Shown in pieces: positions 6-17,156 of a stretch of 64,000 bases of DNA. This DNA is from an uncultured Armatimonadetes bacterium (lineage in GTDB: Bacteria > Armatimonadota > UBA5829 > DTJY01). The translations under genes were made by a program, and so were the position numbers. Where the stretch lies: NCBI GenBank assembly GCA_963717145.1, contig OY970325.1:4928001-4992000 (forward strand), read 5' to 3'. Position 1 is the stretch's first letter, and every line of letters starts with the position of its first letter. The notes under the pieces are model-generated. The model was not told the origin of the DNA. It searched no databases and was given only the letters and a program-made list of their open reading frames with translations.

Positions 6-34
6 AGTATACAATAATGTGCTGGCTCCGTCAA
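6..34 (-). promoter_or_regulatory. sigma70-type promoter TTGACG-N17-TATACT, directed out of the left edge of the window
   Basis: On the + strand, cgtcaa at 29-34 and agtata at 6-11, 17-bp spacer. Confidence 0.75.
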
Positions 35-39
35 GGTCG

Positions 40-1401
40 CGAATTGCTTCACGAACGATGTTACCGAAACGGAAACGTTGCCTCAGATAAGAATGTTACC
101 GAAACTGAGGCATGGAGAAGATGACAACTGCATCCGTAAGAGAAGTCGTGAGGCGCAAACGCAAAGAATATGGCAAAGCCACCAAATCGGAGAAGAAGCT
201 GGTATTGAGTGAAGTCCAGGGATTGACCGGTTACCACAGGAAGTCGCTGGTGAGGCTGTTCGCGAAAGGAGTTCCACCAGCGAGGAGTCCAGTGAGACGC
301 GCAAGGAAGTCGAAATACGAGCCGATAGCCCACAAGCTGAAGACACTCTGGGCTGCGAGTTTCTACGCGTGCGGTAAGCGTCTGCAGCCGTTTCTGACTG
401 AGTTTCTACCCATACTGGAGTCATTCGGGGAGATAACGGTTACACCAGAAGAAGAGAGGCTGCTTAACTCGATCAGCGCGTCGAGCATCGACAGGTTGAT
501 GAAGAAGGAGCGGTCTGCCCTATCGCTAACAGGGAGGACCTTAACAAAGCCGGGGACACTGCTTCGGTCTCAGATCCCGGTGAGGACGTTTGCCGACTGG
601 GATGAAGCTGAGCCTGGGTTCTTCGAGATGGACTTGGTGGGTCATTGCGGAGGTGACGGGAGCGGAGAGTTCCTGTATACTTTGACTATGACTGATGTAG
701 CGACCGGATGGGTAGCGCTTGATGGAATGAAAGGCCGAGGGGAGCACGGAACCGTGCTTGCGGTGCAGTCCGCGTCCAAGAGCGCACCGTTTGCAGTCAG
801 AGGCATAGATACCGACAACGGCGGCGAGTTCATCAACCATCACATGAACAAGTACTGTCGAGCGCACAGGATCACGTTTACGCGCAGTCGGCCTTACAAG
901 AAGAACGATCAATGTCATGTAGAGCAGAAGAACTGGAGCGTAGTCCGGCAGTTTATAGGTTACCGGCGATTCGAGACGGACGAGCAGCTTGCGGTACTAA
1001 AGGCGATATATCCGCTGATCGTGGCGTATCACAACTTCTGTCAGCCCATGATGCGTCTTAAAGAAAAGGAGCGGATTGGGAGTAAAGTGATCAAACGCTA
1101 TGAGCCTGCGATGACGCCGTACCGCAAGCTGATAAGTGTTGAAGGATGGCTTGACGATGAAGCAAAGGATCGCCTCGATAAAGAACGTAGAGCGACGAAC
1201 CCGGTGGAGCTACTAAGACGCATCCACAGGCTATCATCAAAGCTTGACAGGATGCCGAATAAAGACAGATCGAAAGCGAGCAAGGCGCGGCCCTGAGCGG
1301 CGATCAAGAGCCGATCTGACATACTTGAACACACTACTTGGTAACATTATCAATGACGCAACGAATGGCGTTTCGGTAACAAAGTTAAATGAGGCAACAC
1401 G
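40..1401 (+). mobile_element. ISNCY/IS481-like single-ORF DDE insertion sequence, copy 1
   Basis: Imperfect terminal IR (CGAATTGCTTCA / CGTGTTGCCTCA); two subterminal TTGC(C/T)TCA..ATGTTACCGAAAC repeats at the left end, mirrored at the right; flanking direct repeat ggtcg(c) at 35-40 and 1402-1407. Confidence 0.85.
112..1296 (+). CDS. Integrase-core (rve) DDE transposase
   Basis: N-terminal HTH; EMDLVGHCG, DTDNGGEFIN and SRPYKKNDQCHVEQKN motifs. Confidence 0.9.
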   Translation: MEKMTTASVREVVRRKRKEYGKATKSEKKLVLSEVQGLTGYHRKSLVRLFAKGVPPARSPVRRARKSKYEPIAHKLKTLWAASFYACGKRLQPFLTEFLPILESFGEITVTPEEERLLNSISASSIDRLMKKERSALSLTGRTLTKPGTLLRSQIPVRTFADWDEAEPGFFEMDLVGHCGGDGSGEFLYTLTMTDVATGWVALDGMKGRGEHGTVLAVQSASKSAPFAVRGIDTDNGGEFINHHMNKYCRAHRITFTRSRPYKKNDQCHVEQKNWSVVRQFIGYRRFETDEQLAVLKAIYPLIVAYHNFCQPMMRLKEKERIGSKVIKRYEPAMTPYRKLISVEGWLDDEAKDRLDKERRATNPVELLRRIHRLSSKLDRMPNKDRSKASKARP

Positions 1402-1417
1402 GGTCGCCGCGAAACAA

Positions 1418-2885
1418 GTAAGAGTTCACGATCGTTGATAGTGAAGTTGTCAGGCTGGATCGGTCGCGAGTGTCTGAGGAACGCCCGCGAGCATTCGCCG
1501 ACATGACTCCATCGCATCTTCACCACGCAAGTGCCAGGTTCCGAATAGACTCATCAGCGCCATGCGGGTCTCAGATCCCTTGGCCGATCGTGTGCCGCCG
1601 CTGATCTTGCGAGCTGTTACCGCAGGCCGGATCGCTCGCTCGGCCGCATTGTTCTCGCTTGGTACTTCCGGACATTCTACGAAGACAAACAGCTCCGGCA
1701 GGAATCTCTCGATCCGCTCAGCGAGTATCCTCTGCGGAACATCCCGCTTCACATATGGTCTGGCGAGTCGAAGCAACTCGTCCTCGAATGCGATTCGCCG
1801 CTTCTGCCGGGCCTTCGAATCATCGCCCGAAAATGCCTTCGCGCGCCTGTAAACGGCCTTGACCTTGCCGGCCCAGACTGCTACCCCTCTCTTGTCAGGG
1901 TTCGCCTCGACGAGCGTTCGCAAGTCCCGCAGGTAGTGCACCCAACACCGCTGATGCCAACCGAGCAGCACGTTGTAGCCGCAGTAGAAGTCGCTTACGA
2001 CTACACCCTCGTAGTCCTCTCCCAGCACGTCTTTTGCGACCTGGCCGCTCCGACTCTTGTTTCGGACGAAGTAGCGCACGCGTGGCGTCGTGAAGCTCCA
2101 GATGTATCCGTTCTTCCCATCTTCCCGCCAGCCGGTCTCATCCGCGTTCACCGTAGGGCTTCCTCTGACTGCTTGCAGAAGTTTCTCTACCTCCGGCTTG
2201 CCCATGGAGGCCACCTTCTGGAGTATCTTCGCGATCTCTCCGAGCCCGAGATGCAGACCGTAGAGCGACTCCAGAAGCTTCTGCACACGCTCAACCGGCA
2301 TTCTGCACACAGTGTGGAGATAGCTCACCAGGCTCATCAGCCTTATGCCCACACGGTGCGTTCCGATTACCTCCCTGGAGAGATCGAGCTTTGGCACATG
2401 CCTCTTGTGGCAGACTCCGCAGTACCGTCCGATCACTCTGTGCTCGATGATCCTCACCGGTATCTCGATTACCTGCCGACTGTGATGCACCGTGCCGCCC
2501 GAGAGCTTCCTTCCGCAGTCGGGACAGGTGTCGAGCGCGTGATCCACGATCTCAGTCGGAGTCTCCCTCAGCCGTGCAAACGACTTCTGCCGCTTCTTGC
2601 GGTCCTTCTTCTTGCGCTCCGGGCGGTTTGCCTTCACAAAGGCCGGTATCGTCCTGCCGCCGCCACCGAGCTTGGAACGGAGTTCTTCATTCTCCTTCTC
2701 AAGCGCTCGGACGCGTTCGGTGAGGGTGTCCACGCCTTCACGCAATTCCAGGACGGCCTGGTGCTGCTCCAGGACGATGCCGATCAGTTCTTCTCTTGAT
2801 AGGTTGCCGAGATCGTTCACAACCTGCCATTCGACAGCCCGCTCCAAGGTTCCTGCCTACGTTATCAATGTTCGTGAACTCTTAC
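1418..2885 (-). mobile_element. Compact single-ORF IS66-family element (ISBst12-like), copy 1
   Basis: 13-bp terminal IR GTAAGAGTTCACG at 1418 and CGTGAACTCTTAC ending at 2885; no matching 8-bp TSD. Confidence 0.85.
1450..2847 (-). CDS. IS66 family transposase (TnpC-type)
   Basis: Coiled coil, CPDCG and CGVC zinc finger, ADETGW, QRCWVH, PSENNAAERAIR. Confidence 0.92.
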   Translation of the reverse strand: MERAVEWQVVNDLGNLSREELIGIVLEQHQAVLELREGVDTLTERVRALEKENEELRSKLGGGGRTIPAFVKANRPERKKKDRKKRQKSFARLRETPTEIVDHALDTCPDCGRKLSGGTVHHSRQVIEIPVRIIEHRVIGRYCGVCHKRHVPKLDLSREVIGTHRVGIRLMSLVSYLHTVCRMPVERVQKLLESLYGLHLGLGEIAKILQKVASMGKPEVEKLLQAVRGSPTVNADETGWREDGKNGYIWSFTTPRVRYFVRNKSRSGQVAKDVLGEDYEGVVVSDFYCGYNVLLGWHQRCWVHYLRDLRTLVEANPDKRGVAVWAGKVKAVYRRAKAFSGDDSKARQKRRIAFEDELLRLARPYVKRDVPQRILAERIERFLPELFVFVECPEVPSENNAAERAIRPAVTARKISGGTRSAKGSETRMALMSLFGTWHLRGEDAMESCRRMLAGVPQTLATDPA

Positions 2886-2889
2886 CAGA

Positions 2890-3070
2890 TGACGGCGGGC
2901 GATACCCCGGCGAGCTGTGCGGAAGCATCCTGTTGTAGCGAGTCCGCTAGCGCTCGATAAGTTCCTTGCCTCGAGCAGGGTATCAAAGACCTCGCCATTC
3001 GGCAACTCATACCTCATCTTACCATTGAAGCTCTGGCAGCAATCTGCTTCACTGTGCGGAACCCGAGTCA
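2890..3070 (-). pseudogene. IS3-family transposase C-terminal remnant
   Basis: SFNGKMRYELPNGEVFDTLLEAR resembles the IS3 integrase-core motif ESFNGKLRDELLNGEIFDTLLEAR; degraded and cut by the IS66. Confidence 0.7.
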
Positions 3071-3088
3071 TGGGCGCATGCCTGTAGT

Positions 3089-4069
3089 TCATGAACGCAT
3101 GCCCTGCAGTTGCTCTGCTATGGCCTTGACAGATTCAAAGCCCTCCTGTTCGAGATCGACAATGTCGCGAATACGCTGTGCGAGACGCTGCTGTAGTTGG
3201 CGATCGTCTGTCCTGCTAAGCTTGAAGAGTAGATTGGCGATCACACGCCATGTGTTAGACAGCTGATTATATATGGCAGCACAGTGCTCTGTAGACAAGG
3301 CAGGCCACCGATGCTGCAATGCTGTGCATAAGTCGTGCATCTGCCCTCGTGTAATACTCAATCCACCTGGTCGGTTCAGCTGGCGGTAGTAATTGTATAA
3401 TGCGGGCATATCGCGGCTTCGCTCTACGTCTCGCATGAAGGCAACCATACCATAGACTCCCTGGTACTCGTTGTCGATGCTTGCGCCACCCAGACGGTCA
3501 ACCGTAATCATCAGCCCGCGTGCGATCGCCTTCTCCGCGGACTCCGACTGCCATATCGTGCGTAGAGATGTATAGTGTATGTCCACTTGTCCATTTCGAT
3601 CCACGGCTTTGCAGAATACCTGAGGGTTCAGTCGGTAACGCCCGTTATCGAAAAATAGCACCTGATCTTCTCTCACATCGAGTATGGGGACCACGCTCCA
3701 ATAGGAGGCAATGCCGGCGTACTCCGTGTGAGCCAGGTAGAAGTCGTTTATCCATACCAGAGGGATATGGTCTTGCTCCAGCAACTCGCGCAAGGATTGC
3801 AAGCACTCTTTTCCAGTAGCCAATTGAACATGTGTGAGTGGCTGAGCCAGGCAGTGCATGAACCTGGCAAATAAGTCCTCGTGGGTGCCGCTTCTACCAT
3901 GAACTACCTCCTTTGATGGTACGGCAACAGCTGAGTAGTAGAATCCCCAGTACCCCAGCATCGCTGCCAGCGTGCTCTCCGACATATCCAGATGGTAACA
4001 CTGGAGGTAACACCGCAGATTCACCAGGAAGCAGAATACCCCTGTCTCATCAAAATATGCTCTGCTCAT
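3089..4069 (-). CDS. BtrH-like protein (butirosin biosynthesis protein H N-terminal domain); possible ACP-dependent acyltransferase
   Basis: N-terminal FCFL..LR, 'PLVWINDFYLAH' (BtrH-type DxFYL), helical C-terminus; recognised by resemblance only. Confidence 0.55.
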   Translation of the reverse strand: MSRAYFDETGVFCFLVNLRCYLQCYHLDMSESTLAAMLGYWGFYYSAVAVPSKEVVHGRSGTHEDLFARFMHCLAQPLTHVQLATGKECLQSLRELLEQDHIPLVWINDFYLAHTEYAGIASYWSVVPILDVREDQVLFFDNGRYRLNPQVFCKAVDRNGQVDIHYTSLRTIWQSESAEKAIARGLMITVDRLGGASIDNEYQGVYGMVAFMRDVERSRDMPALYNYYRQLNRPGGLSITRGQMHDLCTALQHRWPALSTEHCAAIYNQLSNTWRVIANLLFKLSRTDDRQLQQRLAQRIRDIVDLEQEGFESVKAIAEQLQGMRS

Positions 4070-4226
4070 ACAGGTAGTTGGCTAGTTAAGCCACCCTCGC
4101 CACTGCCGTACATCTCGTAGGTGATCACTAGATGATCGGAGCACAGATTGAAGATCAGCGGCAGTGTTGTATATGAACGTTCAAGATGGCGGCCATTCTA
4201 CAGATGAGTCACTTCCTCACATCCAT

Positions 4227-5162
4227 CTAGGCCCCTGGATGGTCTGTGCCCATTGTCGGCATCTGTCCCGTAGCCCATCGCATGAAGGCATCAACACCGA
4301 TTCCGCCAGTGACGAACTTGTGGAACAACAGGATGTTCTCATCGTGATGCTTCTCATAGAAATAGGCACTTGTCTCAGAGTGCTCGGCATCAAACGTCCG
4401 CCGATAATGGGCAAGGTGATAGTTCGTGGCCTGTGGGCAGTAGCCGAACGGCCTGTTCTGGTTGAAGAGGCGATAACCTAGCTCAACATCCTCACAACCC
4501 CAACTGCGTCCGAATCCCTCATCAAACCCTCCCGCCTGTTCAACCCATGCCTTATGCACTGCCATGTTGCCACCGATAAAACCAATCCAAGGTGCCTGCG
4601 CCCCTTCGCGCGTCAGCACAGTCTCAATAATCCGCTCGATCGCGGAACGCCTCTGATAGCAGGACACCTTCTGATCAAAACGTTCACGCACATCCGCTTC
4701 ACTAAGGCATTGCTCTCGCAGCGCATCATAATGAGCAGCCGTCGCAGCAACTTCCGGGTAAAACACACCATGCGTGGGATCGGCGAAGAACTTCAGATGC
4801 GCCAGGTTCACGGTTCTCCCGTGGACAGCGCGCAGTTGTTGCTCTTGCATATCTACATGTGCGGCTATGAACTCCGGACACAGCAGTACGTCATCATCCG
4901 TGAAGATCAGTAACTCATGTACGGCCTTAGCGATTCCGGCGTTGCGCGCAGCGGCTCGTCCTTTATTGTGCTGCGAGATCGCCGTCCACCGGAATGGTAG
5001 CTCGAGTTGGCGCAGAAACTGCGCCGTCCCATCGGTCGACCCATCATCGACAAAGATGACCTCGACATCATCATGCAGGCACGATTGGTTGACCAGCGAC
5101 GCCGCCATCAACACTAATCGCGATATTTTGTTGAATGTCGGGACGATCACTGATGCTTTCAT
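4227..5162 (-). CDS. Glycosyltransferase family 2
   Basis: Probable start MKASVIVPTFN (ATG 5162); VDDGSTD, AAARNAG, FTDDD, GGFDE..WGCEDVELGYR. Confidence 0.9.
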   Translation of the reverse strand: MKASVIVPTFNKISRLVLMAASLVNQSCLHDDVEVIFVDDGSTDGTAQFLRQLELPFRWTAISQHNKGRAAARNAGIAKAVHELLIFTDDDVLLCPEFIAAHVDMQEQQLRAVHGRTVNLAHLKFFADPTHGVFYPEVAATAAHYDALREQCLSEADVRERFDQKVSCYQRRSAIERIIETVLTREGAQAPWIGFIGGNMAVHKAWVEQAGGFDEGFGRSWGCEDVELGYRLFNQNRPFGYCPQATNYHLAHYRRTFDAEHSETSAYFYEKHHDENILLFHKFVTGGIGVDAFMRWATGQMPTMGTDHPGA

Positions 5163-5190
5163 AGCAGTTATCTGGCTGAGAAGTAGCACG

Positions 5191-7000
5191 TCAGAGGCTA
5201 CGGAACTGTGCCGTACCAAAGCCAATCTGTGCAGCCTCTTGCACCAACACATCCTCAAGTTTCCCTCTGAAATACGCTCGATTATATGCGTCAATCATCT
5301 GAGAGATCCGAGCTTCCAATGCCCCAGCGAACTCCTTCTGGGCCGGTTGATAAGCGCCCAAATGTGCGACGCTTTCCAGTAAGATATCGACCACAAGGTG
5401 ACCAAGATTGTGCCGCCACCGACCGACAGCCTGGACAAAAGCCAGAAAATGAGCCATCTCATCGTCGGTCGATGAGAAACGAGTTTCCCTCGCATGGGTG
5501 CGCCAATGAGCTAGCATTGCAGGGAACACCTCATCCGCCCAGAAAGACAACCGATTCGTCTGGAGCACTAGTACGTTCCAAGTATCCCGGATGAACGGGT
5601 CGATGATCTCGTACGGACGGCTCGAAGATTCGTCGGCAGAAGCTCATCAGCTGCTCGGGATCATCCATATTCTCTCGAACCTGCCAAGGATCAACACGGG
5701 ATATCAGACCGTCAGTGAGCAACTGTGATTCAATCGCTGTACCAGGAAATACAATTACTTGATTGAACAAATATAAGGGCGAAAAAAAAGGAGAATTCTC
5801 GATGCACATGTCCGTTTCGCTGATGAACTGAACCGTTTCCCGGTATTCTTGAATGGTGGTATATGGATCGACAAGGATCATGGATGTCTCCAAATGAAAC
5901 CCTTGTTTTCGCATGAACTCAATCGCATGGCGATTCTGTGCAACTGTCGTTCCTTTTCGATAGCGATTCAAGGTGCTCTGTGCACCGGATTCAATGCCGA
6001 GGAACACATCCTGCAATCCAGCAGTTCTCAATAGGGTGAATAGTTCCGGGTCGAGACTGATATCGACACGGACTTCTATCCAAAATCTCAGCCTCATTTT
6101 GTTGTCAAGAATGCGATGTGCGAGTTCATACAACCGTTGATGCCCAGAATCCCCGTAGCCGAAAAAGTTTTCATCAATGATCGTCAGATACTCAATACCA
6201 AACTCTCGTACCAAGTACTCAATCTCTTCAAATACCGAATCAACCGAACGACAGCGCCATGCCGTAGGTACAAGGGCTGCACATGCCGGTGCCCCGCAGT
6301 ATGTACACCGACCACGACATCCCCGGCTGGTGAAGATGGAGGCTGTACGGAGGGTGATTCCATCACGCAGTAAGCGCTCCTTGAGCTCTGCAAACGTATC
6401 GCGGGCGGCAAAGGGAAGGCTCGATAGATCCTCAACCACCGGCCCGCACGCGTTGACTACAACACGTGTGCCATCCCGCCAAGCCAGACCAGGTAGGTCT
6501 TGCCACTCCTCTCCCCGCTTCAAACGTTCAAGGAGGCGTATCAGGGTGACCTCTCCCTCTCCCCGAACAACCGAGTCGAATTCAGGAATTCCGGCCAGCA
6601 GATACTCATATGTCATTGTCGCAAACGGACCGCCTATGCTGATATGCCCGTGGTAGCCACGTTGCCTCAGAGCACGTGCAATCCGACACGCCTCAACCGT
6701 ATGCAGGTCATATAGCAGGCTGATACCGACAAGCGGTGGGTTGATGGCCAGCACCCGATCACAAACATCATCGATATCCAGATCATGCAGATGGGCGCTC
6801 AATATCTGAACAGTGTAGCCGTATGAACGCGCATAGGAAGCCAGACAGCATAAACCGAGATTATCCTTCAGGAACTTGGCGTAGACTGCATTCATTGGTC
6901 CGCCCGTGAAAACTTCGACATCATTTCTGACATTCTTCTCTCGAAACAATGTCTTATCGCGAAGCGATGTCTCCTTTGGGGCGATTAATATGACATCCAT
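5191..7000 (-). CDS. Cobalamin-dependent (class B) radical SAM protein, copy A; contains a +1 frameshift at about 5625
   Basis: B12-binding N-terminus, SRGCRGRCTYC motif; removing one A at 5625-5626 (ctcgaagatt vs ctcgagatt in the paralog) joins ORFs 5531..7000 and 5191..5568 into a full-length homolog of copy B. Confidence 0.85.
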
Positions 7001-7179
7001 TTGATCTGCTCCATGGTCAGCTCACAGGCAAGCGGCTCTTCAGATGGATCCGTCTTCCAGTGAAGGCCTCACGCGGCACGAGACTGTGCCAGCGCATCCT
7101 GCAATGAATCGTACTATAACCTGTCTGAACGCTCTATCTGCGCCATTCCTCTTGATAACCACATCGGTGAATTGACTCG

Positions 7180-9027
7180 TCAACACTGTGGCTGATCCAA
7201 GTATGAACAAAGCTGAGGTTGGCCATAGCAGCCTATTCTTGCTGCCACTCTGGCTAATAATCCGTCAAGCTCCTCGCCGAAACACGCCCGGTTGTAGCAA
7301 TCGATCATCTCTGCGATCCGGGTGCTTAGGGCAAGAGCAAACCCGGGATATATGGGCCGACGGCTGTCGGTGCATTCGATACTTTGGCGCATCATGTCCA
7401 TCACCAGCGAGCCCAAATCGTGCCGCCAACGACCGGCAGCATGGACAAAAGATGTATACCGCTCTGTCTCTGTGTCAGCCGACACGGCGCGCCTTTGTTT
7501 TGTATATAGCCGCCAATGACCAAGCAAGGCAGGGAAGATATCATCGTCTAGCAGTGCAAGACGGTTACTCTGGGTAGCTAGGACGTCCCAGATATCCCGG
7601 ATGAACGGATCGATGATCTCGTACGGACGGCTCGAGATTCGTCGGCAGAAGCTCATCAGCTGCTCGGGATCATCCATATTCTCTCGAACCTGCCAAGGAT
7701 CAACACGGGATATCAGACCGTCAGTGAGCAACTGTGATTCAATCGCTGTACCAGGAAATACGACTAGTCGGTTGAATAAAAACAAAGGAAAAGCTTCCCG
7801 ATGAATCTCCATCTCTTCGATGAATTGAACCGTTTCCCGGTATTCTTGAATGGTGGTATATGGATCGACAAGGATCATCGCCAACTCCCGATGAAACCCT
7901 TGTTTTCGCATGAACTCAATCGCATGGCGATTCTGTGCAACTGTCGTTCCTTTTCGATAGCGATTCAAGGTGCTCTGTGCACCGGATTCAATGCCGAGGA
8001 GCACATCCTGCAATCCAGCAGTTCTCAATAGGGTGAATAGTTCCGGGTCGAGACTGATATCGACACGGACTTGCACCCAAAATCTCAGCCTCATTTTGTT
8101 GTCAAGAATGCGATGTGCGAGTTCATACAACCGTTGATGCCCGGAATCCCCGTAGCCGAAAAAGTTTTCATCAATGATCGTCAGATACTCAATACCAAAC
8201 TCTCGTACCAAGTACTCAATCTCTTCAAATACCGAATCAACCGAACGACAGCGCCATGCCGTAGGTACAAGGGCTGCACATGCCGGTGCCCCGCAGTATG
8301 TACACCGACCACGACATCCCCGGCTGGTGAAGATGGAGGCTGTACGGAGGGTGATTCCATCACGCAGTAAGCGCTCCTTGAGCTCTGCAAACGTATCGCG
8401 GGCGGCAAAGGGAAGGCTCGATAGATCCTCGACCACCGGCCCGCACGCGTTGACTACAACACGTGTGCCATCCCGCCAAGCCAGACCAGGTAGGTCTTGC
8501 CACTCCTCTCCCCGCTTCAAACGTTCAAGGAGGCGTATCAGGGTGACCTCTCCCTCTCCCCGAACAACCGAGTCGAATTCAGGAATTCCGGCCAGCAGAT
8601 ACTCATATGTCATTGTCGCAAACGGACCGCCTATGCTGATATGCCCGTGGTAGCCACGTTGCCTCAGAGCACGTGCAATCCGACACGCCTCAACCGTATG
8701 CAGGTCATATAGCAGGCTGATACCGACAAGCGGTGGGTTGATGGCCAGCACCCGATCACAAACATCATCGATATCCAGATCATGCAGATGGGCGCTCAAT
8801 ATCTGAACAGTGTAGCCGTATGAACGCGCATAGGAAGCCAGACAGCATAAACCGAGATTATCCTTCAGTACCTTGACATAGACGCTACTCATGGGACTGC
8901 CGGACAATCTGTCGTAGTCATTCTTCGTTATACCGTCGCGGAACAAGACAGAATTCCGCAGGGACAATTCACGAGGCCCTATCAATATGGCATCCACTTG
9001 GCTTATATCCTCTGCCCCGTCACACAC
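7180..9027 (-). CDS. Cobalamin-dependent (class B) radical SAM protein, copy B
   Basis: LGLCCLASY..GGPFAT..VRGEGE B12 domain; CRGRCTYC; GIESG; start may be slightly downstream (VDAILIGP). Confidence 0.9.
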   Translation of the reverse strand: MCDGAEDISQVDAILIGPRELSLRNSVLFRDGITKNDYDRLSGSPMSSVYVKVLKDNLGLCCLASYARSYGYTVQILSAHLHDLDIDDVCDRVLAINPPLVGISLLYDLHTVEACRIARALRQRGYHGHISIGGPFATMTYEYLLAGIPEFDSVVRGEGEVTLIRLLERLKRGEEWQDLPGLAWRDGTRVVVNACGPVVEDLSSLPFAARDTFAELKERLLRDGITLRTASIFTSRGCRGRCTYCGAPACAALVPTAWRCRSVDSVFEEIEYLVREFGIEYLTIIDENFFGYGDSGHQRLYELAHRILDNKMRLRFWVQVRVDISLDPELFTLLRTAGLQDVLLGIESGAQSTLNRYRKGTTVAQNRHAIEFMRKQGFHRELAMILVDPYTTIQEYRETVQFIEEMEIHREAFPLFLFNRLVVFPGTAIESQLLTDGLISRVDPWQVRENMDDPEQLMSFCRRISSRPYEIIDPFIRDIWDVLATQSNRLALLDDDIFPALLGHWRLYTKQRRAVSADTETERYTSFVHAAGRWRHDLGSLVMDMMRQSIECTDSRRPIYPGFALALSTRIAEMIDCYNRACFGEELDGLLARVAARIGCYGQPQLCSYLDQPQC

Positions 9028-9752
9028 CAGATGCGCTCATATTGGCCGCCTTGACCAAGAATACTGGCGTGCTCAATAAGTCTTTCGATCTCTCTGGGCC
9101 CAATCTGGCTCTGGTACTGCCCCACTAACTCGCGCTTCCTCTCGATCCACCCATCGACGGGAATCAGATGTTCGACGAGGCGCCATCCCGCAGATGCCAA
9201 AGTGTCCAACGCACGCTCCACCCAAGGGGGGTGGAGCGCATAGGGCAATTCCTCATAGAGGAACAGCGTTGGCCTATCCTTCACCGGTAAGCCCTGCCAC
9301 CAGGACAATCCGGCCTCACGCGCGAGCACATGGTCAACATGAGCCCCGATTCCCAGCGGAAGCCCTATCTGATTTGGCAGCGCCGCATTGTATATCCGAG
9401 AGAACCCCACTATAATGGTATCATACACTTCACGTTCAGCCTCCGGAATGTCAGAACTCGTAAAACTGCAGCCCAGAATGTCGCGCAGCCGCTGATAGCC
9501 ACGCAAGTAGGCATCCGGCAACGCTTCGAATTGCAGTGCTACGCTCGACATCTCAGAGAAGCGTTGCTCCTCGTCTAGGATCCGTTGCCGAGCCTCCGCA
9601 CGGGACTCGGGAAGAATTGTATACTCCTGCACTGTAAAGATATCCCATACGATCACCTGCGATCGACGGGGTTGTACAATGCTGGCGCCCAGTGAGAAAC
9701 AAGCGTCATCACAATGTGGGGATGTAAGCAGGATCGTATTACTCATATCCAC
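9003..9752 (-). CDS. PIG-L/LmbE family N-deacetylase
   Basis: SPHCDD and GAHVDH metal motifs, YEELPY, YQSQ. Confidence 0.88.
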   Translation of the reverse strand: MDMSNTILLTSPHCDDACFSLGASIVQPRRSQVIVWDIFTVQEYTILPESRAEARQRILDEEQRFSEMSSVALQFEALPDAYLRGYQRLRDILGCSFTSSDIPEAEREVYDTIIVGFSRIYNAALPNQIGLPLGIGAHVDHVLAREAGLSWWQGLPVKDRPTLFLYEELPYALHPPWVERALDTLASAGWRLVEHLIPVDGWIERKRELVGQYQSQIGPREIERLIEHASILGQGGQYERIWCVTGQRI

Positions 9753-10560
9753 CTGATATCATGCACCGACGCGGTGCCTCTGAGAGTTCACTGATCCTGA
9801 CCGAATCAGACTGGTCACCATGATGAAAGGCTTCAATCGTCGCATAGCCGTCATAGCTCACGGAGTACGGGGCAGCGAATGTCGTGGGCCAATCGAAATC
9901 GCCTTGTCCGATAGCCGCAAACTCGGTAAACAACTTGCGAACCCTCCGGATATCGGTGACATGTAGCTTGCGAATCCAATGATCTAGTGCTTCGACCCAG
10001 TGGCGTGGGTAGCCGGCCAAGCAGGCATTCCGGGTATCCAGACAAGCCGCGACACTGGAACTGTCGAGGGTATCAATGAATCCAGCAAATTCTAGTGGGC
10101 TCAACAGGAAGCCTTGCCAGTCATTCTCAAGGCAGATGACCACGCCAAGCGCTTGAGCCCGGCGCGCCCAAAAGTCATAGTGCTCTGAGGCACGCTGGTA
10201 AACTGCTCGATAGCTGACATCAGAGGTAACCTTGCCGGGAGCGAGTTGGACGGTCGGGATCCCCAACTCGGCGGCGATTCGGCACGCGTAGTCACGCTCC
10301 TCAGTGTCATCCACCGTGATGCGGACGGTGTTGAACAACAGCGCTGACAGACTGCTCAAGAATGCACCGGTTTTTGGGGTTGCCTTACGCAGTGCGGTGA
10401 GTCCCGCTATCGTTGTATAGAAACTAATCAGACCGCTGGCGTCGAAGCTTATCTCCAAGGCATCAAAGCCTGCATGCCGAGCCAACGCTGCGGCATCGCT
10501 AGTGGAAAGCTCCCCAGTCTGACCCCCGGCAAATGCACAGATAGTAATAGCGGTCTTCGT
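9739..10560 (-). CDS. Sugar phosphate isomerase/epimerase (xylose isomerase-like TIM barrel)
   Basis: GFDALE, ICLEND, CLDTRN, HVTD, GQGDFDW, YDGYATIE; open frame extends to an ACG at 10558-10560 behind a GAGGTGA RBS. Confidence 0.8.
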   Translation of the reverse strand, partial: TKTAITICAFAGGQTGELSTSDAAALARHAGFDALEISFDASGLISFYTTIAGLTALRKATPKTGAFLSSLSALLFNTVRITVDDTEERDYACRIAAELGIPTVQLAPGKVTSDVSYRAVYQRASEHYDFWARRAQALGVVICLENDWQGFLLSPLEFAGFIDTLDSSSVAACLDTRNACLAGYPRHWVEALDHWIRKLHVTDIRRVRKLFTEFAAIGQGDFDWPTTFAAPYSVSYDGYATIEAFHHGDQSDSVRISELSEAPRRCMISGGYE

Positions 10561-10566
10561 AGCAGA

Positions 10567-11817
10567 TCACCTCACCAACTCCTGAAGATGCAGGCGGATT
10601 TTTGTGATTGCTCCGGCGATCTCTTCCATATCATGGCGATCACCGAGCAACAGGTTCTGTGGCAGCCAGACGGCTTCACGACAGATCTGCTCAGCGACGT
10701 GACAGCGGTCGGCATACGCGGAAGAAACATCCTCACTGAACCCAAACAGCGGATTCCTATAGATTGGATGTGAATAACCCTCGGTGCATGGAATGCCTTC
10801 TGCATTCAGCGCCACGACGAACCGCCTACGACTGAGCCCCGGCCAGGCATCCCGCTGGAAACGGAAGGCAAACAGGTGAAAGATCGGATTTGTGGCACGG
10901 GGATCGAGGTGTTTGACCAGGATTCCCTCCATGCCGCTCAGAAACTCCGTCAGGTACGCCGCATTCGCCGCACGGGTTGCACGTTGGACGTCAAAGCGGC
11001 GCAGCTGTGCGCAAGCCACCGCAGCTTGCAACTCTGTTAACCGGTAGTTCCACCCCAACTCCGAATGCGTATACCAGGGGCTGCCGAAAGCTCTTCCCAG
11101 GGTGTGCAGTGCATAGAGTTTGTGGTAATGATCTTCGCTGTTGGTAACAACGACTCCACCTTCGCCACATGTGAGATTCTTCGACCCTTGCAGGCTAAAG
11201 CATCCGATGTCACCCATTGAGCCGATCGGACGTCCGCACCAACTCGCGTTCACGGCTTGTGCTGCATCTTCTATCACGGATAGTCCGTGCCGTTCGGCCA
11301 AGGTGCACAGGGTATCCATCTCGCATGGCTGCCCTGCAAAATGCACCGCGATGATGGCGCGTGTCTTATCGGTAAGGTGGTCTGGGATGTCGTGAACGTT
11401 CAGATTCCATGTATCGGGACATATGTCGACAAACACCGGAACAGCGCCCGCGTGGAGAATGCATGTAGCGCTAGAAATGAAGGAATACGGCGACACAACG
11501 ACTTCGTCGCCTCGCTGGATATCCACACAACTGACCGCCATGTCTAATGCTGCAGTGCCGCTAGCGACAGCCAACGCGTAGCGGGCGGCGTGCCGCTGGG
11601 CAAAGGCCTGCTCCAGCCGCTCAAGATAGCCATCATTGTTCCCTTGTGGAGATTGCCTTGCCAAACTCACCCGTGACCAACGACCAAGACGCAGGGCATC
11701 CAACATTGCTGACTCATCACTCGCATCCCATTGCGGCCAGGCTGGGAACGGTTTGGACTTTACCTTCTGTCCTCCACATATCGCTAGCTTGCACGTATCT
11801 CGCTCAAGATAGGGCAT
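10567..11817 (-). CDS. DegT/DnrJ/EryC1/StrS PLP-dependent aminotransferase (AHBA-synthase-related)
   Basis: SGTAAL, IEDAAQA, FSLQGSKNLTCGEGG, GWNYRLTELQAA. Confidence 0.92.
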   Translation of the reverse strand: MPYLERDTCKLAICGGQKVKSKPFPAWPQWDASDESAMLDALRLGRWSRVSLARQSPQGNNDGYLERLEQAFAQRHAARYALAVASGTAALDMAVSCVDIQRGDEVVVSPYSFISSATCILHAGAVPVFVDICPDTWNLNVHDIPDHLTDKTRAIIAVHFAGQPCEMDTLCTLAERHGLSVIEDAAQAVNASWCGRPIGSMGDIGCFSLQGSKNLTCGEGGVVVTNSEDHYHKLYALHTLGRAFGSPWYTHSELGWNYRLTELQAAVACAQLRRFDVQRATRAANAAYLTEFLSGMEGILVKHLDPRATNPIFHLFAFRFQRDAWPGLSRRRFVVALNAEGIPCTEGYSHPIYRNPLFGFSEDVSSAYADRCHVAEQICREAVWLPQNLLLGDRHDMEEIAGAITKIRLHLQELVR

Positions 11818-12018
11818 GTTGTCAATGGGTGCATGGAAGCGTGATCAACCAAACGGGGCCTTGTGCTGCTTGGTACTTTACCCGGCCTGAGTTCTCTTCA
11901 CACCGCCGACAGACCCCCACTCCTTTCCTGTCCAAGCTACGCCTTGTAACCCCTGAGTGTTGAGCTTATGAGATAACGCTTAGCTCCCATGCACTGGACA
12001 GATTCCATTACCAGCGTC

Positions 12019-12435
12019 CTAGGGTCCTGCTACCATATCATCGCCGTATTGTTCATCTTGCTGCGGAAAGCCTCGCAGAACTCCATGTATCTCCATGCGT
12101 TCAGGCTGAAATGCCTGTCGAAACACGGGAATAGCCTCGTGCGGAACGCCTTCTCCGCAGGCGAACACATCTAGGGCTGCATAGCCCTTCTCCGGCCACG
12201 AATGGAAACTGATATGTGATTCACAGAGCAAGACCACAGCCGTCACGCCGGCTGTACATGGAAACGTGTGTACTCTGGTATCTATCACCGTAGTACGACA
12301 AGCCGAAGCCGCAGCCAGCAACGTGTCTCTCACAAACTCGGGATCATCCAACCGAGTCGCTCCCCAGATATCAATCGCGAGATGAACACCAAGGACTTGG
12401 TAGTCATCCGGGCTTGGGCCCTGTCGAGTTATCAT
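12019..12435 (-). CDS. speD: S-adenosylmethionine decarboxylase proenzyme
   Basis: GVHLAID..., GVTAVVLLCESHISFHSWPEKGYAALDVFACG containing the pyruvoyl ESH cleavage site; start inferred at ATG 12435. Confidence 0.88.
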   Translation of the reverse strand: MITRQGPSPDDYQVLGVHLAIDIWGATRLDDPEFVRDTLLAAASACRTTVIDTRVHTFPCTAGVTAVVLLCESHISFHSWPEKGYAALDVFACGEGVPHEAIPVFRQAFQPERMEIHGVLRGFPQQDEQYGDDMVAGP

Positions 12436-12806
12436 AGATCCAAGCACAGCACATTTCCCTCTCAGCAGAAGTTGTGCATCGACTCTATAGCATTGCCGCC
12501 ACGTATCGACCCATACTGGCGAACCGACACCCCTTACCGTCCTGCTCACCTTGGCTATCGTGCACCGAAGCAGAAGCAGCACTCCCGACGGCCCAACGAT
12601 GGCATCACAACATGGACATGAAGCCTGTAATGTGCGTAATGGATATCGCTGCGTTTGGAAGCATCATGCTCTCATCTTGCTGTTGGCGATCCAGCAATGA
12701 TATGGGCGCAGTTCTGACCACGTTATCGCTCAACTCGAATCGACCTTGCGTTAGGTTGAAAGGAGAGTGCTTCCTGCTCATCTTCAATGCACTGTACATC
12801 CTAGTC

Positions 12807-12835
12807 AGTATATCATTCAGTCACCCGGAAGTCAA
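12807..12835 (-). promoter_or_regulatory. sigma70-type promoter TTGACT-N17-TATACT for the leftward speD to btrH-like operon
   Basis: On the + strand, agtcaa at 12830-12835 and agtata at 12807-12812. Confidence 0.75.
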
Positions 12836-12841
12836 CATGAC

Positions 12842-14308
12842 GTAACAGTTCACGCTTGGGGATAACGAGTTTGATCAGGCAGGGAAGAGGACAGACTTGC
12901 CTGCGAGCAGTTGCCTGCATGATTCGAGCATGTCCAGACCCCTGACGTGCCATGTGCCAAACAGACTCATGAGCGTCATCTTTGTCTCGGAACCCTTCGC
13001 GCTTCGTGTGCCTCCGCATACCTTGCGGGCGATCACACACGGCCTCAGCGCTCGTTCTGCGCCATTGTTGTCCGACGGTACTTCCGGGTACTCTACGAAC
13101 ATGAACAACTCGTGCAAGCGATCTATGAATCTCTTTGCCAGCGTCTGCTGTGGAGCATCTGAGCCGACATACGGACCTGAGAGCGCCTCTACCTCTTCCT
13201 CGAAGAGTACTCGCTTCCACTTGCGAACCTCCGCCTTCTTGCTCCGGAACTCCTTTGCCCGATCGTAAACACCCTTCACCGCATCCGCCCATGCGATGAC
13301 GCCCGTGTCGTCCGCGTTCCTCTCCTTCAGTTTGTGCAGATCCCTGGCCAGATGTGCCCAGCATATCTGGCGGTCTGCAACTACCGGGTTGTATCCGGCA
13401 TAGCAATCCGTTACCACTACCCCTTCGTAGTCGCCGCCTATCGTTTCCTTCGGGATCTCTCCACTCCGACTCCGCCGGTAGATGAAGTAGCGCACGTTCT
13501 TAGTGGAGAAGGTCCAGATGTATCCGTTCAGCCCATCCTCTCTCCAGCCCGTCTCGTCTGCGTTTATGTATGGGCTTCCACGTACAAGCGAGAGTAGCCG
13601 CTCTTTCTCTTTTTTGCCACAGTCTGCCACCGTGTGCAATATCTCGCTTATCTCTCCCACAGAGAGCTGAAGACCATACAGAGCCTTCAGCAATCCCTGT
13701 ATCGTCCGCTTTGTCATGCGACCTACCGTCGAAAGATACGATATCAGGCTCATCAGGTTCACGCCTACCCGATGCTTGCCTACAACCTGGCCGGAAAGGT
13801 CAACCTTCGGCACATGACTCTTGCCACAGTATCCGCATCTTCTGGCGATGAACCTGTGCTCGACTACGTCCACAGGCACGATGGGGATGTCGATGACTTG
13901 GCGGAGTCTCTTTACCGTGCCCCCTGTGAGCGCTCGGCCGCAGTCCGGACACTTCGAGTGCGCGTGCTCGACTACACGGGTGGGTGTCTCCCGCCTGCGC
14001 ACGAACGACTTCTTGCGCTTCTTTCGTTCAGCTGCCCGGCGCTCTTTGCGGTTCGGCTTCACCCAGTCAGGCACGGATGGGGAACTGCCATCACCGCCGG
14101 AAAGCCTGGCGCGAAGGTCTTCGTTCTCCTTCTCCAGGTCGCCGATACGCGCCACGAGTTGGGGAACTAGACCTTCCAACTGGCTGACCCTGGCCTCAAG
14201 CTCCTCGTATGTCGGCTTGGATTGCTCGCTCACACTCCTTGGTTCGAGACGCTCCCAGCAGGTTCCTTCTTCTTACAGACAAAATAATCCCTAAGCCTGA
14301 ACTGTTAC
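12842..14308 (-). mobile_element. Compact IS66-family element, copy 2, with perfect 8-bp TSD
   Basis: IR GTAACAGTTCA / TGAACTGTTAC; TSD aacatgac at 12834-12841 and 14309-14316. Confidence 0.93.
12875..14233 (-). CDS. IS66 family transposase
   Basis: CPDCG, ADETGW, QICWAH, PSDNNGAERALR. Confidence 0.92.
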   Translation of the reverse strand: MSEQSKPTYEELEARVSQLEGLVPQLVARIGDLEKENEDLRARLSGGDGSSPSVPDWVKPNRKERRAAERKKRKKSFVRRRETPTRVVEHAHSKCPDCGRALTGGTVKRLRQVIDIPIVPVDVVEHRFIARRCGYCGKSHVPKVDLSGQVVGKHRVGVNLMSLISYLSTVGRMTKRTIQGLLKALYGLQLSVGEISEILHTVADCGKKEKERLLSLVRGSPYINADETGWREDGLNGYIWTFSTKNVRYFIYRRSRSGEIPKETIGGDYEGVVVTDCYAGYNPVVADRQICWAHLARDLHKLKERNADDTGVIAWADAVKGVYDRAKEFRSKKAEVRKWKRVLFEEEVEALSGPYVGSDAPQQTLAKRFIDRLHELFMFVEYPEVPSDNNGAERALRPCVIARKVCGGTRSAKGSETKMTLMSLFGTWHVRGLDMLESCRQLLAGKSVLFPA

Positions 14309-14315
14309 AACATGA

Positions 14316-15674
14316 CGAATTGCCTCACCAAAGATGTTACCGAAGTGGATTCGTTGCCTCACGAATGAATGTTACTGTAGAACAGAGGCATGGAGAGGAT
14401 GAGCACTTCAACAACAAGAGAGATCATGAGGCGAAGGAGAAAGGAGTATCTAAGGAGTGGGAAATCGGCCAAGAAGGTGATACTGGACGAGCTGGAGGAG
14501 TTGACCGGTTATCACCGGAAGTCGCTGGTAAGGATGTTTCGAGGAGGCGTGAAGAGGAGGAATGCGCCGATCAGGAGACCTCGAGCTTCGAAGTACGAGG
14601 CGATCCTGCCGCTGCTCAAGGTCCTGTGGGCTACAAGCTTCTACGCCTGCGGGAAGCGGCTTGCTCCGTTCTTGCTGGAACTGGTTTCGGTGATGAAGAG
14701 GTTCGGAGAGATCCGGCCAACCGTGAGTGAGGAGTCGCTGCTTGCCTCGATCAGCGCGGCCACGATAGACAGGATGCTGACGCCGGATCGGGAGTCCATG
14801 AGGGTGAAGGGACGTACGACGACCAAGCCTGGGACGCTGCTTCGGAGCAGGATCGCGATAAGGACCTTCGCCCAGTGGGACGAGAACGAGCCTGGATTCT
14901 TTGAGTTCGACCTGGTAGGCCACTGCGGTGGGACAGCGAGAGGAGAGTTCCTGTATACCCTGAACATGACGGACGTGCACTCCGGCTGGATAGCGCTCGG
15001 CGGTATGAAAGGCAGAGGAGAGCGAGGCACCGTCCTGGCGATCAAATCCGCGTCCGCTCAGCTATCATTCAGGGTCAAAGGGATGGACTCAGACAACGAC
15101 AGCGCATTCATCAACTATCATCTGGCACGGTACTGCCGCCGGGAGAACATATTGCCGACCCGCAGCCGGCCGTACAAGAAGAACGATCAGTGTCATGTGG
15201 AGCAGAAGAACTGGACCGTGGTGAGGCAGTTCATCGGCTACCGGCGATTCGAGACTGATGAGCAGTTGGCCATACTCCAGAAGGTCTATCCGCTGATCAT
15301 GGCCTACCACAACTACTTCTCTCCCATGATGAAGCTTGCCGAGAAGGAACGTGATGGGAGCAAGGTGACCAAGCGCTATACGAAAGCGATGACTCCATAC
15401 CAGAGGCTTCTCATGGCCGACGGATGCATGGACGAGGCTACCAAGGGTCAACTGGCGCGAGAGTATGAATCCACAAACCCGGCCGAACTGCTCAGACGGA
15501 TACGAATGCTGCTCAGACAACTGGAGGACATGCCCACCGAGCAGGCCGATCCCAGGGTACGGTGACCCAGGAGCACGCCTGCTTACGTACCCGGACACGT
15601 AAGACCACTTTCGGTAACAATCCAGATGAGGCAATGATCACCGTTTCGGTAACAAGGATTAATGAGGCAACACG
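14316..15674 (+). mobile_element. ISNCY/IS481-like insertion sequence, copy 2 (diverged relative of copy 1)
   Basis: Ends CGAATTGCCTCA... and ...TGAGGCAACACG with doubled subterminal repeats; direct repeat catga(c) at 14311-14316 and 15675-15680. Confidence 0.87.
14390..15565 (+). CDS. Integrase-core (rve) DDE transposase
   Basis: Colinear homolog of 112..1296 (EFDLVGHCG, DSDNDSAFIN, SRPYKKNDQCHVEQKN). Confidence 0.9.
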   Translation: MERMSTSTTREIMRRRRKEYLRSGKSAKKVILDELEELTGYHRKSLVRMFRGGVKRRNAPIRRPRASKYEAILPLLKVLWATSFYACGKRLAPFLLELVSVMKRFGEIRPTVSEESLLASISAATIDRMLTPDRESMRVKGRTTTKPGTLLRSRIAIRTFAQWDENEPGFFEFDLVGHCGGTARGEFLYTLNMTDVHSGWIALGGMKGRGERGTVLAIKSASAQLSFRVKGMDSDNDSAFINYHLARYCRRENILPTRSRPYKKNDQCHVEQKNWTVVRQFIGYRRFETDEQLAILQKVYPLIMAYHNYFSPMMKLAEKERDGSKVTKRYTKAMTPYQRLLMADGCMDEATKGQLAREYESTNPAELLRRIRMLLRQLEDMPTEQADPRVR

Positions 15675-15680
15675 CATGAC

Positions 15681-17156
15681 GTAACAGTTCACGCTTGGGG
15701 ATAACGAGTTTGATCAGGCGGGGAAGAGGACAGACTTGCCTGCGAGCAGTTGCCTGCAGGACTCGAGCATGTCCAGCCCTCGGACGTGCCATGTGCCAAA
15801 CAGACTCATGAGCGTCATCTTTGTCTCGGAACCCTTCGCGCTTCGTGTGCCTCCGCATACCTTGCGGGCGATCACACACGGCCTCAGCGCTCGTTCTGCG
15901 CCATTGTTGTCCGACGGTACTTCCGGGTACTCTACGAACATGAACAACTCATGCAAGCGATCCGTCAATCTCTTTGCCAGCACCTGCTGTGGAACCTCTA
16001 AGCCGACATACGGACCTGAGAGCGTCTCTACCTCTTCCTCGAAGAGCACTCGCTTCCACTTGCGAACCTCCGCCTTCTTGCTCCGGAACTTCTTTGCCTG
16101 ATCGTAAACACCCTTCACCGCATCCGCCCATGATATGACGTCCGGGTTATCGGCGTTCTTCTCCTTCAGTTTGTGCAGTTCCCTGGCCAGATGTGCCCAG
16201 CATATCTGACGGTCTGCAACTACGGGGTTGTATCCGGCGTAGCAATCCGTTACCACCACCCCTTCGTAGTCGCCGCCTATCGTTTCCTTAGGTATCTCTC
16301 CGCTCCGACTCCGCCGGTAGATGAAGTATCGCACGTTCTTAGTGGAGAAGGTCCAGATGTATCCGTTGAGCCCGTCCTCTCTCCAGCCCGTCTCGTCTGC
16401 GTTTATGTATGGACTTCCGCGTACAAGCGATAGAAGTCCCTTCATCTCGCCTCTGCCACAGCCTGCCACCGTGTGCAATATCTCGCTTATCTCTCCCACA
16501 GAGAGATGAAGACGATACAGAGCCTTCAGCAACCCCTGTATCGTTCGCTTTGTCATACGGCCTACTGTCGAAAGATACGATATCAGGCTCATCAGGTTCA
16601 CGCCTACTCGATGCTTGCCTACAACCTGGCTCGACAGGTCAACCTTCGGCACATGCGCCTTGCCACAGTATCCGCATCTTCTGGCGATGAATCTGTGCTC
16701 GACTATGTCCACAGGCACGATCGGTATATCAATAACCTGGCGGACTCTCTTTACCGTGCCCTCCGTGAGTGCCCGACCGCAGTCCGGACACTTCGAGTGC
16801 GCATGCTCGACTACACGGGTGGGGGTCTCCCGCCTGCGAACGAACGACTTCTGGCGCTTCTTTCGTTCGGCTGCCCGGCGCTCTTTGCGGTTCGGCTTGA
16901 CCCAGTCAGGTATGGGGGTGGAACTGCCGCCACCCGAGAGCTTTGCCTTGAGATCCTCCAGTTCCTTGACGAGACGCTGGATCATCTCCCGCTGCTCCAG
17001 GACAATGCCCACCAATTCTTCTCTTGTCAGACCGTCGAACTCTTCCACACAGGCATGTTCCACCCGCCCGGCCAAGGGTCCTTCCTATTGCAAGCCGACA
17101 ATGTCGGAAAAACTCTCACTGCTCTCGCAAAATGATCCACAAGCCTGAACTGTTAC
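15681..17156 (-). mobile_element. Compact IS66-family element, copy 3
   Basis: IR GTAACAGTTCA at 15681 and TGAACTGTTAC ending at 17156; very similar to copy 2 except at the 5' end; right flank cacatggc matches aacatgac at 6 of 8 positions. Confidence 0.9.
15714..17075 (-). CDS. IS66 family transposase
   Basis: Same motifs as 12875..14233. Confidence 0.92.
   Translation of the reverse strand: MAGRVEHACVEEFDGLTREELVGIVLEQREMIQRLVKELEDLKAKLSGGGSSTPIPDWVKPNRKERRAAERKKRQKSFVRRRETPTRVVEHAHSKCPDCGRALTEGTVKRVRQVIDIPIVPVDIVEHRFIARRCGYCGKAHVPKVDLSSQVVGKHRVGVNLMSLISYLSTVGRMTKRTIQGLLKALYRLHLSVGEISEILHTVAGCGRGEMKGLLSLVRGSPYINADETGWREDGLNGYIWTFSTKNVRYFIYRRSRSGEIPKETIGGDYEGVVVTDCYAGYNPVVADRQICWAHLARELHKLKEKNADNPDVISWADAVKGVYDQAKKFRSKKAEVRKWKRVLFEEEVETLSGPYVGLEVPQQVLAKRLTDRLHELFMFVEYPEVPSDNNGAERALRPCVIARKVCGGTRSAKGSETKMTLMSLFGTWHVRGLDMLESCRQLLAGKSVLFPA

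Follow-up and report, generated by a model that had tools for sequence, protein, structure and literature searches.

Why should an insertion sequence (IS) lie exactly five bases upstream of the -35 hexamer of a promoter, and is that promoter what its transposase was aiming at? The question is raised by the left edge of a 64,000-nucleotide stretch of DNA from an uncultured Armatimonadetes bacterium (contig OY970325.1, positions 4,928,001 to 4,992,000), which we call the window and in which position 1 is the first letter. We compare the flanks of the element found there with those of its other copies in the same genome and of its relatives in other genomes. We find a site rule, a fixed orientation and a 5-bp target duplication; the targeted promoters existed before the insertions and stand before real genes, and the rule holds across the clade of transposases of about 390 amino acids to which the element belongs. 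On the whole we judge it likely that this is an active insertion sequence of the rve class that selects sigma-A promoters, most likely as complexes with bound RNA polymerase. The site consists of the following features, where ORF stands for open reading frame:

40-1401, plus strand: element copy 1, a 1362 bp insertion sequence with one uninterrupted ORF
112-1296, plus strand: transposase gene of copy 1, an ORF of 394 amino acids
6-34, minus strand: target promoter P1, with -35 TTGACG (34-29), a 17-nt spacer and -10 TATACT (11-6)
35-39: left target duplication GGTCG of copy 1, directly adjoining the -35 hexamer of P1
1402-1406: right target duplication GGTCG of copy 1, matching 35-39

An earlier note on this DNA, made from the letters alone, had given the limits of copy 1, its GGTCG duplication and the promoter TTGACG-N17-TATACT at 34-6, and all of these hold to the base; P1 is also picked up by a consensus promoter scan. 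Transcription from it runs to the left and leaves the window in the direction of a BpsA_C (branched-chain polyamine synthase-like) gene (L002:192-1442, minus strand; Pfam PF01861, 162 bits). The element ends in CGAATTGCTTCA on one side and TGAGGCAACACG on the other, with termini CG...CG, and each of its ends carries, as read by eye, two copies of a bipartite repeat (TTGCYTCA, 8-9 nt, GTTACCGAAAC). A TTGCCTCA motif stands 4 nt from the element tip and resembles a -35 box at a distance of 5 nt from the site of insertion. When right and left ends are abutted with spacers of 0-8 nt, we find no promoter that matches at least 8 of 12 positions, of the kind formed in copy-out-paste-in elements, and the left end itself contains no more than a weak TTGCCT-17-GAAACT.

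The host genome, a single contig of 5.37 Mb with 60.6% G+C, contains 22 full-length copies (copy 1 among them) at 99.85% identity or above, all with different flanks and 17 with a perfect 5-bp duplication. Read outward from the left end, all 22 flanks share one layout: five duplicated bases, then a TTGACA-like hexamer, then a -10 box. In the hexamer that starts 5 nt from the element, the first position is T in 21 copies, the second is T in 17 and the third is G in 19, and a TTG start is missing from 6 of the insertions. The -10 box, taken as TAnnnT, is present at a spacer of 16-19 nt in 22 of 22, with lengths of 16 (2 copies), 17 (10), 18 (7) and 19 (3), which is roughly the distribution of the genome's own promoter spacers, shifted slightly longer. 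Immediately before the -10 box there is an excess of G, a feature of extended -10 promoters, and the five duplicated bases carry almost no information, both here and in the 63 flanks of relatives described below. Orientation is identical throughout, with the 5' end of the transposase gene beside the -35 and the promoter pointing away; the right flanks, read outward, hold TTG in none of the 22 cases and TAnnnT in two. The earlier note, arguing from two copies, had proposed that promoters are targeted with the left end toward the promoter and the promoter firing away, and had looked to further copies for GTCAA beside the duplication together with a reversed -10. The genome bears this out in all 22 copies for the -10 and the orientation and in 21 for the opening T of the -35, and the 63 flanks of relatives lend the interpretation further support.

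How much of this could arise from a taste for the hexamer alone? At 200,000 random genome positions the -10 box occurs at 1.5% and TTG at 1.1%. A stronger challenge is the possibility that the transposase prefers a TTG-type hexamer for its likeness to the element's own end and that purifying selection then removes the insertions that fell outside promoters, an account that would fit both the dominance of T, T and G at the first three hexamer positions in this genome and the way in which flank hexamer and end motif mirror each other pseudo-symmetrically at the left junction. Among crude-intergenic sites, defined as those outside ORFs of at least 150 amino acids, however, a -10 box follows 5.9% of TTG, 12.9% of TTG[AC][AC], 31.9% of TTGAC and 55.9% of TTGACA sites. 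Even at 0.32 per site, the chance of 22 out of 22 is, by our own arithmetic, about 1e-11. Because every insertion has a -10 box and no more than 32% of intergenic TTG or TTGAC sites do, a preference for TTGAC plus survival between genes cannot yield the pattern. Neutral intergenic TTG sites without promoters are unused.

Five of the copies have no matching duplications (genome 905202, 1232065, 1424173, 2240983 and 4343689), and some of their flanks recur between copies (GTGCT lies to the left of 905202 and to the right of 1424173), which suggests rearrangement between copies. A search of the genome with the end motif returned 68 matches and among them no convincing miniature derivative: 41 are ends of full copies, and the remaining 27 comprise 2 ends of copy 2 (introduced below), 3 right ends of full copies in variant form, a stump of 14 nt and otherwise chance-like matches without the promoter pattern. 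The stump, CGAATTGCCTCACG at genome 751268, directly follows the right duplication of the copy at 751274 and seems to be what remains, at this promoter, of the left tip of an older related element.

Now we consider relatives in other genomes. Homologues of the transposase number at least 7,966 in the protein collection, nearly all of them unnamed, and metagenomes contain thousands of further relatives. A profile scan with one genome per species gave 555 confirmed stretches, from which we keep 80 loci at 39-66% identity (Armatimonadota, Chloroflexota, Atribacterota, Acidobacteriota, Bacillota, Actinomycetota, Proteobacteria and one Beckwithbacteria genome); 63 of these are usable, having the end motif upstream of the gene and a flank of at least 45 nt, while 13 have no motif and 4 too short a flank. 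Where two motif matches occur (L070, L102), the one nearer the gene is taken. Bacteroidota members were reached in four genomes, with one or two copies each. The conserved ends consist of CG, two bases and then a TTGCCTCA-like motif, and 19 of the 47 loci in which both end motifs are located have perfect 5-bp duplications. In these 19 elements the two ends differ consistently: the left end has A or C as its third base in all 19, the right end T in 18.

The flanks of the relatives repeat what is seen in the host genome. TAnnnT is at the expected place in 54 of 63, against 4.2% of 15,542 control positions in the same loci; at least 5 of the 6 bases of TATAAT are matched in 41 of 63 (controls 1.65%), and TTG is present in 28 of 63 (controls 1.7%). 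Of the flanks that match strongly, 48 in number, 40 place their best -10 at a distance of 27-29 nt from the element. The -10 that had been sought alongside GTCAA is therefore even better conserved than the -35 itself. Furthermore, it is kept in 28 of the 35 flanks that have no TTG, so a plain TTGAC preference does not explain the pattern. Since TTG is absent from 6 of 22 insertions here and from 35 of 63 in relatives, and most of these keep the -10, we regard hexamer preference followed by selection as very improbable. The target is almost certainly the housekeeping sigma-A (sigma-70-type) promoter.

Are these boxes genuine promoters that the host was already using? Downstream of 17 of the 22 target promoters we find an ORF of at least 70 amino acids that starts 58-137 nt from the element, and two further targets are followed by transfer RNA genes, tRNA-Asn at 83 nt and tRNA-Met at 47 nt:

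L014:2945-3018: tRNA-Asn gene at a targeted promoter
L019:1377-1453: tRNA-Met gene at a targeted promoter

Pfam families are recognised in 17 of the 20 downstream ORFs scanned, and the products include SecA, ribosomal protein L31, GTP-dependent PEPCK, glutamate dehydrogenase, an E2 acyltransferase, phosphoglycerate mutase and an MFS transporter. One copy (genome 4728348, L015) lies 5 bp outside the terminal repeat of an IS66-family element and sits on that element's own transposase promoter, GTAACA-16-TATTTT, whose -35 agrees poorly with the consensus. For the copy in front of secA, a genome of another genus has the two flanks contiguous, forming an empty site. That site keeps TTGACA-17-TAGAAT while its spacer has diverged, from which it follows that the promoter pre-dates the insertion and is under selection. 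The claim that the -35 is target sequence and no part of the element thus stands, because the flanks of all copies differ and the orthologous empty site keeps its promoter.

The window contains a second, diverged copy of the element (copy 2), at a site that has been entered by more than one insertion:

14316-15674, plus strand: diverged element copy 2, with a transposase gene of 391 amino acids at 14390-15565
14311-14315 and 15675-15679: CATGA duplication of copy 2, a 5-bp direct repeat
12807-12835, minus strand: target promoter P2, with -35 TTGACT (12835-12830), a 17-nt spacer and -10 TATACT (12812-12807)
12019-12582, minus strand: S-adenosylmethionine decarboxylase gene, driven by P2 (PF02675, 101 bits)
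12842-14308, minus strand: IS66-family type 1 copy A, 1467 bp, with its transposase gene at 12875-14233 (minus strand)

Copy 2 shares about 69-79% DNA identity with copy 1 over aligned segments and 62% identity at the level of the transposase protein. Between it and P2 lies IS66 copy A, bounded by its own 8-bp duplication (AACATGAC at 12834-12841 and 14309-14316). When this element is excised in silico, TTGACT-17-TATACT (12835-12807) directly abuts CATGA, and the coordinates proposed earlier for this arrangement, with the -35 adjoining copy 2 once the IS66 and its 8-bp duplication are removed, hold as well. A search of sequencing runs with window 11000-12841 lists none, RNA data included.

What kind of enzyme follows this rule? 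The transposase belongs to the rve, or retroviral-integrase, superfamily of DDE transposases. In Pfam it matches rve (PF00665) alone, with 38.2 bits for copy 1 against a cut-off of 32.6 and 32.4 bits, just below it, for copy 2; the catalytic residues D174, D233/D235 and E271, on an RNase H-like fold, are invariant in 16 sequences. The database entry of the copy 1 transposase starts at the second ATG and has 391 amino acids. The models of individual IS families do not fit it: the NCBIfam IS481 model (NF033577) gives 46.4 bits against a cut-off of 224, the IS3 model (NF033516) 25.8 bits against 160, and the NCBI IS21 model stays far below its cut-off. Plasmid-borne relatives labelled 'ISNCY family' or 'ISNCY-like element ISBj12 family' are 35-43% identical over most of their length, and tblastn to the plasmid genes with ISNCY or ISBj12 labels gives 37-38% identity over 95-99% of the query. 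The label 'ISNCY/IS481-like' that the element had been given is a fair one.

The predicted structure (pLDDT, the predicted local distance difference test, 76) has the integrases of PFV and HIV, IstA and TnsB as its nearest Foldseek neighbours (E down to 7.6e-7). Its N-terminal 135 or so amino acids are predicted as an all-helical region of eight helices (pLDDT 90), and a small beta domain follows the core. Pfam gives no match to the first 160 amino acids at E up to 10, and a fold search with the first 139 gives none at E of 0.001 or below; the best neighbours, all non-significant (E at least 0.66), are the Pax6 paired domain, IstA and the SETMAR DNA-binding domain. These neighbours weakly suggest that this region is a bipartite helix-turn-helix DNA binder, which would suit the doubled bipartite repeats in each end.

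To interpret how such an enzyme may find its sites, we consider what the flanks contain. Their information is what sigma-A reads and almost nothing else, and a poor -35 is used if a -10 is present, which favours a polymerase-occupied promoter as the target. From the pattern of bases we consider it probable that recognition proceeds through promoter-bound RNA polymerase. The transpososome would recognise the complex of promoter and RNA polymerase holoenzyme in place of naked DNA, possibly through contacts with sigma region 4, the alpha C-terminal domain or the flap, or else through a DNA distortion that the polymerase imposes at the upstream edge of the -35. Strand transfer takes place within the 5 bp immediately upstream of the -35 hexamer, so that the left end comes to lie at 5 bp from the -35 and some 28 bp from the -10, and the orientation would be set by the conserved asymmetry of the two ends. 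As the promoter fires away from the element, the core promoter and its gene stay intact and the site is a safe harbour; such a site can be used again, hence the pile-ups of elements at single promoters.

Could the transposase or transpososome instead read both boxes as double-stranded DNA, mimicking sigma and needing no polymerase? The flank information, being purely -35 and -10 consensus, would be the same in that case, and both the weak resemblance of the N-terminal region to a bipartite helix-turn-helix DNA binder and the likeness of the terminal repeat motif TTGCCTCA to a -35 box point in this direction. However, the spacer varies between 16 and 19 nt, much as in natural promoters, a variation that is expected if sigma reads both boxes and a rigid transposase does not. 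The many targets in relatives that keep a -10 box with no match to the -35 (the 28 of 35 above) also argue against direct reading. Sigma reads the A at position 2 and the T at position 6 of the -10 box in melted DNA, and these are the very positions that are conserved. Moreover, the spacing within the bipartite end repeat (8-9 nt) differs from that between promoter boxes, and no similarity is detected between the profiles of the transposase and sigma-A (probability 0.3%). We therefore take recognition of the DNA alone to be unlikely. A predicted complex of the transposase with sigma-A region 4 (residues 296-377) scored 0.00, 0.39 and 0.00 in its runs, with no control pairs, and counts neither way.

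The other mobile elements of this genome bear on a further possibility, a more general attraction to promoters. In the window, besides IS66 copy A, we find:

1418-2885, minus strand: IS66-family type 2, with its transposase gene at 1450-2847 (minus strand)
15681-17156, minus strand: IS66-family type 1 variant, copy B, about 92.7% identical to copy A
starting near 17190: a further type-2-like end

Both IS66-family lineages are promoter-seeking too. Type 1 (a single ORF, 8-bp duplication) has 22 copies genome-wide; in 17 of them a -35-like hexamer begins 5-9 nt from the element end at which the transposase gene has its 3' end, and 17 likewise show a -10-like box at 28-32 nt. Type 2 (terminal repeat GTAAGAGTTCACG, 8-bp duplication) has 17 copies, and in at least 10 of them, by a hand count of flanks, the distance from the end is about 14-16 nt for TTGAC and about 37-39 nt for a -10-like box. 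The type 2 element at 1418-2885 is aimed at P1, with its end 16 nt from TTGACG once copy 1 is removed; this offset is a third geometry in the genome and is like that of TnGBS.

That unrelated or distantly related lineages share the habit in one genome, at offsets of 5, 5-9 and about 15 nt, is what a generic structural hot-spot would produce, in which DDE transposases that favour bent or under-wound DNA are drawn to the edge of a polymerase-occupied promoter with no adaptation specific to the element. Such an account overlaps in part with the explanation that we prefer. It does not sit well with base-pair precision (21 of 22 copies have the opening T of the hexamer at a single offset), with strict orientation in 22 of 22 or with the conserved asymmetry of the ends, which together indicate a specific docking geometry, and we consider it quite unlikely.

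It is important to note the points that weigh against our interpretation of a promoter-bound polymerase as the target. The two IS66-like lineages, which use the same zone at other offsets, fit generic promoter-DNA structure equally, and the -35-like terminal motif TTGCCTCA means that the end-binding domain could read part of the target directly. Nine of the 63 flanks of relatives have no -10 box at the expected place. In an ISBj12-like clade with transposases of about 500 amino acids, the complete promoter pattern is missing at 5 nt from the CGCATTGCC motif in all seven plasmid loci examined, whose ends are not delimited, and a single locus has a TTG hexamer there, so the rule is shown for the clade of about 390 amino acids only. 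Finally, the target of copy 2 could alternatively be the promoter of the IS66 transposase, TTGTAA-18-TATTTT, and not P2, as the order of insertion is undecided; under either order, copy 2 has a promoter at the right offset.

How does the element relate to known families? IS481 and IS3 elements have termini TG...CA, and those of IS3 have two frameshifted ORFs. Our element is like both in its rve core and its size (about 1.3 kb), and like IS481 in having a single ORF; unlike both, it has CG...CG termini and falls far below the family model cut-offs, and its one uninterrupted ORF of 394 amino acids sets it apart from IS3. With the ISBj12/ISNCY transposases it shares a CGCATTGCCTC-type motif near the left end and the protein identity given above, whereas those proteins have about 500 amino acids, and the motif is subterminal, inside a longer inverted repeat, in the one locus that is fully read. 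In this locus (L105, a Bradyrhizobium plasmid; 1333-1370 and 3085-3125), the CGCATTGCCTC motif is preceded by at least 20 bases that are inverted-repeat to the other end, and common flank motifs in the other six loci suggest longer ends likewise. ISNCY with its ISBj12-like members is a holding class and no defined family, and the element is clearly similar to transposases that carry this label. The ISLbi1 group within ISNCY measures 1.4-1.5 kb with a 5-bp duplication, into which the 1362 bp and the 5-bp duplication seen here would fit, in a comparison with ISLbi1 by description only. ISLbi1, a possible relative, is reported from within coding regions in Leptospira biflexa (PMC2229662).

Oriented insertion upstream of promoters is itself a described behaviour. 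The Mutator-like TnGBS, ISLre2 and ISKra4-group elements insert 13-17 bp upstream of the -35 of sigma-A promoters, according to Guerillot et al. 2014 (PMC3942029), who ascribe their orientation to asymmetry of the two inverted repeats. Our element is like them in its fixed orientation to the promoter (22 of 22) and in its asymmetric ends (position 3, 18 of 19), and unlike them in that only the five duplicated bases separate it from the -35. Its transposase is also of another kind, being rve with no Mutator-like match in Pfam. Our literature search, with ISfinder and the supplements of PMC3942029 outside its scope, found promoter targeting for TnGBS, ISLre2 and ISKra4 only and none for rve (IS481 and IS3 included), ISNCY, ISBj12, ISLbi1 or IS66 elements. 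The behaviour is known; the enzyme superfamily and the geometry differ from those described, and they occur in a large and barely annotated family.

A further parallel lies in yeast, where the Ty3 and Ty1 integrases tether to the RNA polymerase III machinery through known protein partners. Like these, the element would direct an enzyme of the integrase superfamily to a transcription initiation complex and in this way stay out of coding sequence; unlike it, Ty3 and Ty1 are eukaryotic LTR (long terminal repeat) retrotransposons with established partners, and the partner here would be the one that we infer from the flanks. A broader proposal, for and against which we see the case as evenly poised, is that the transpososomes of a very large, mostly unannotated integrase-type family (in Armatimonadota, Chloroflexota, Acidobacteriota, Atribacterota, candidate phyla and others) dock on promoter-bound sigma-A/RNA polymerase and carry out integration within the 5 bp that border the -35 on its upstream side, as a bacterial counterpart of Ty3/Ty1 tethering, with the zone used convergently by several IS lineages and occupied promoters serving as a general landing beacon. 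If true, promoter-seeking would have evolved independently in the bacterial rve superfamily, with a geometry tighter than in the Mutator-like cases, and the element would offer a simple one-protein system for how a transposase reads the transcription initiation complex. It would account for the stacking of insertion sequences upstream of single promoters and for the genome's tolerance of dozens of copies. In practical terms, the element would mark functional sigma-A promoters in the genomes of uncultured phyla and might be put to use for self-targeting insertion into safe harbours or for probing promoter occupancy.

Both loci in the window are pile-ups of several promoter-seeking elements at one promoter. 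The stack at P2 (12807-17200) consists of IS66 copy A, element copy 2, IS66 copy B and the type-2 end. Elsewhere in the genome, a tandem pair of IS66 type 1 elements at 2546270/2547745 has the same 8-bp duplication, CCCTGAAA, three times. The IS66 type 2 element beside copy 1 (flanks at 1407-1417 and from 2886 onward) and a copy about 15.5 kb to the left (genome 4913885) have apparently exchanged their flanks, CAGATGA and GTCGCCGC, an arrangement that an inversion between the two copies would fit.

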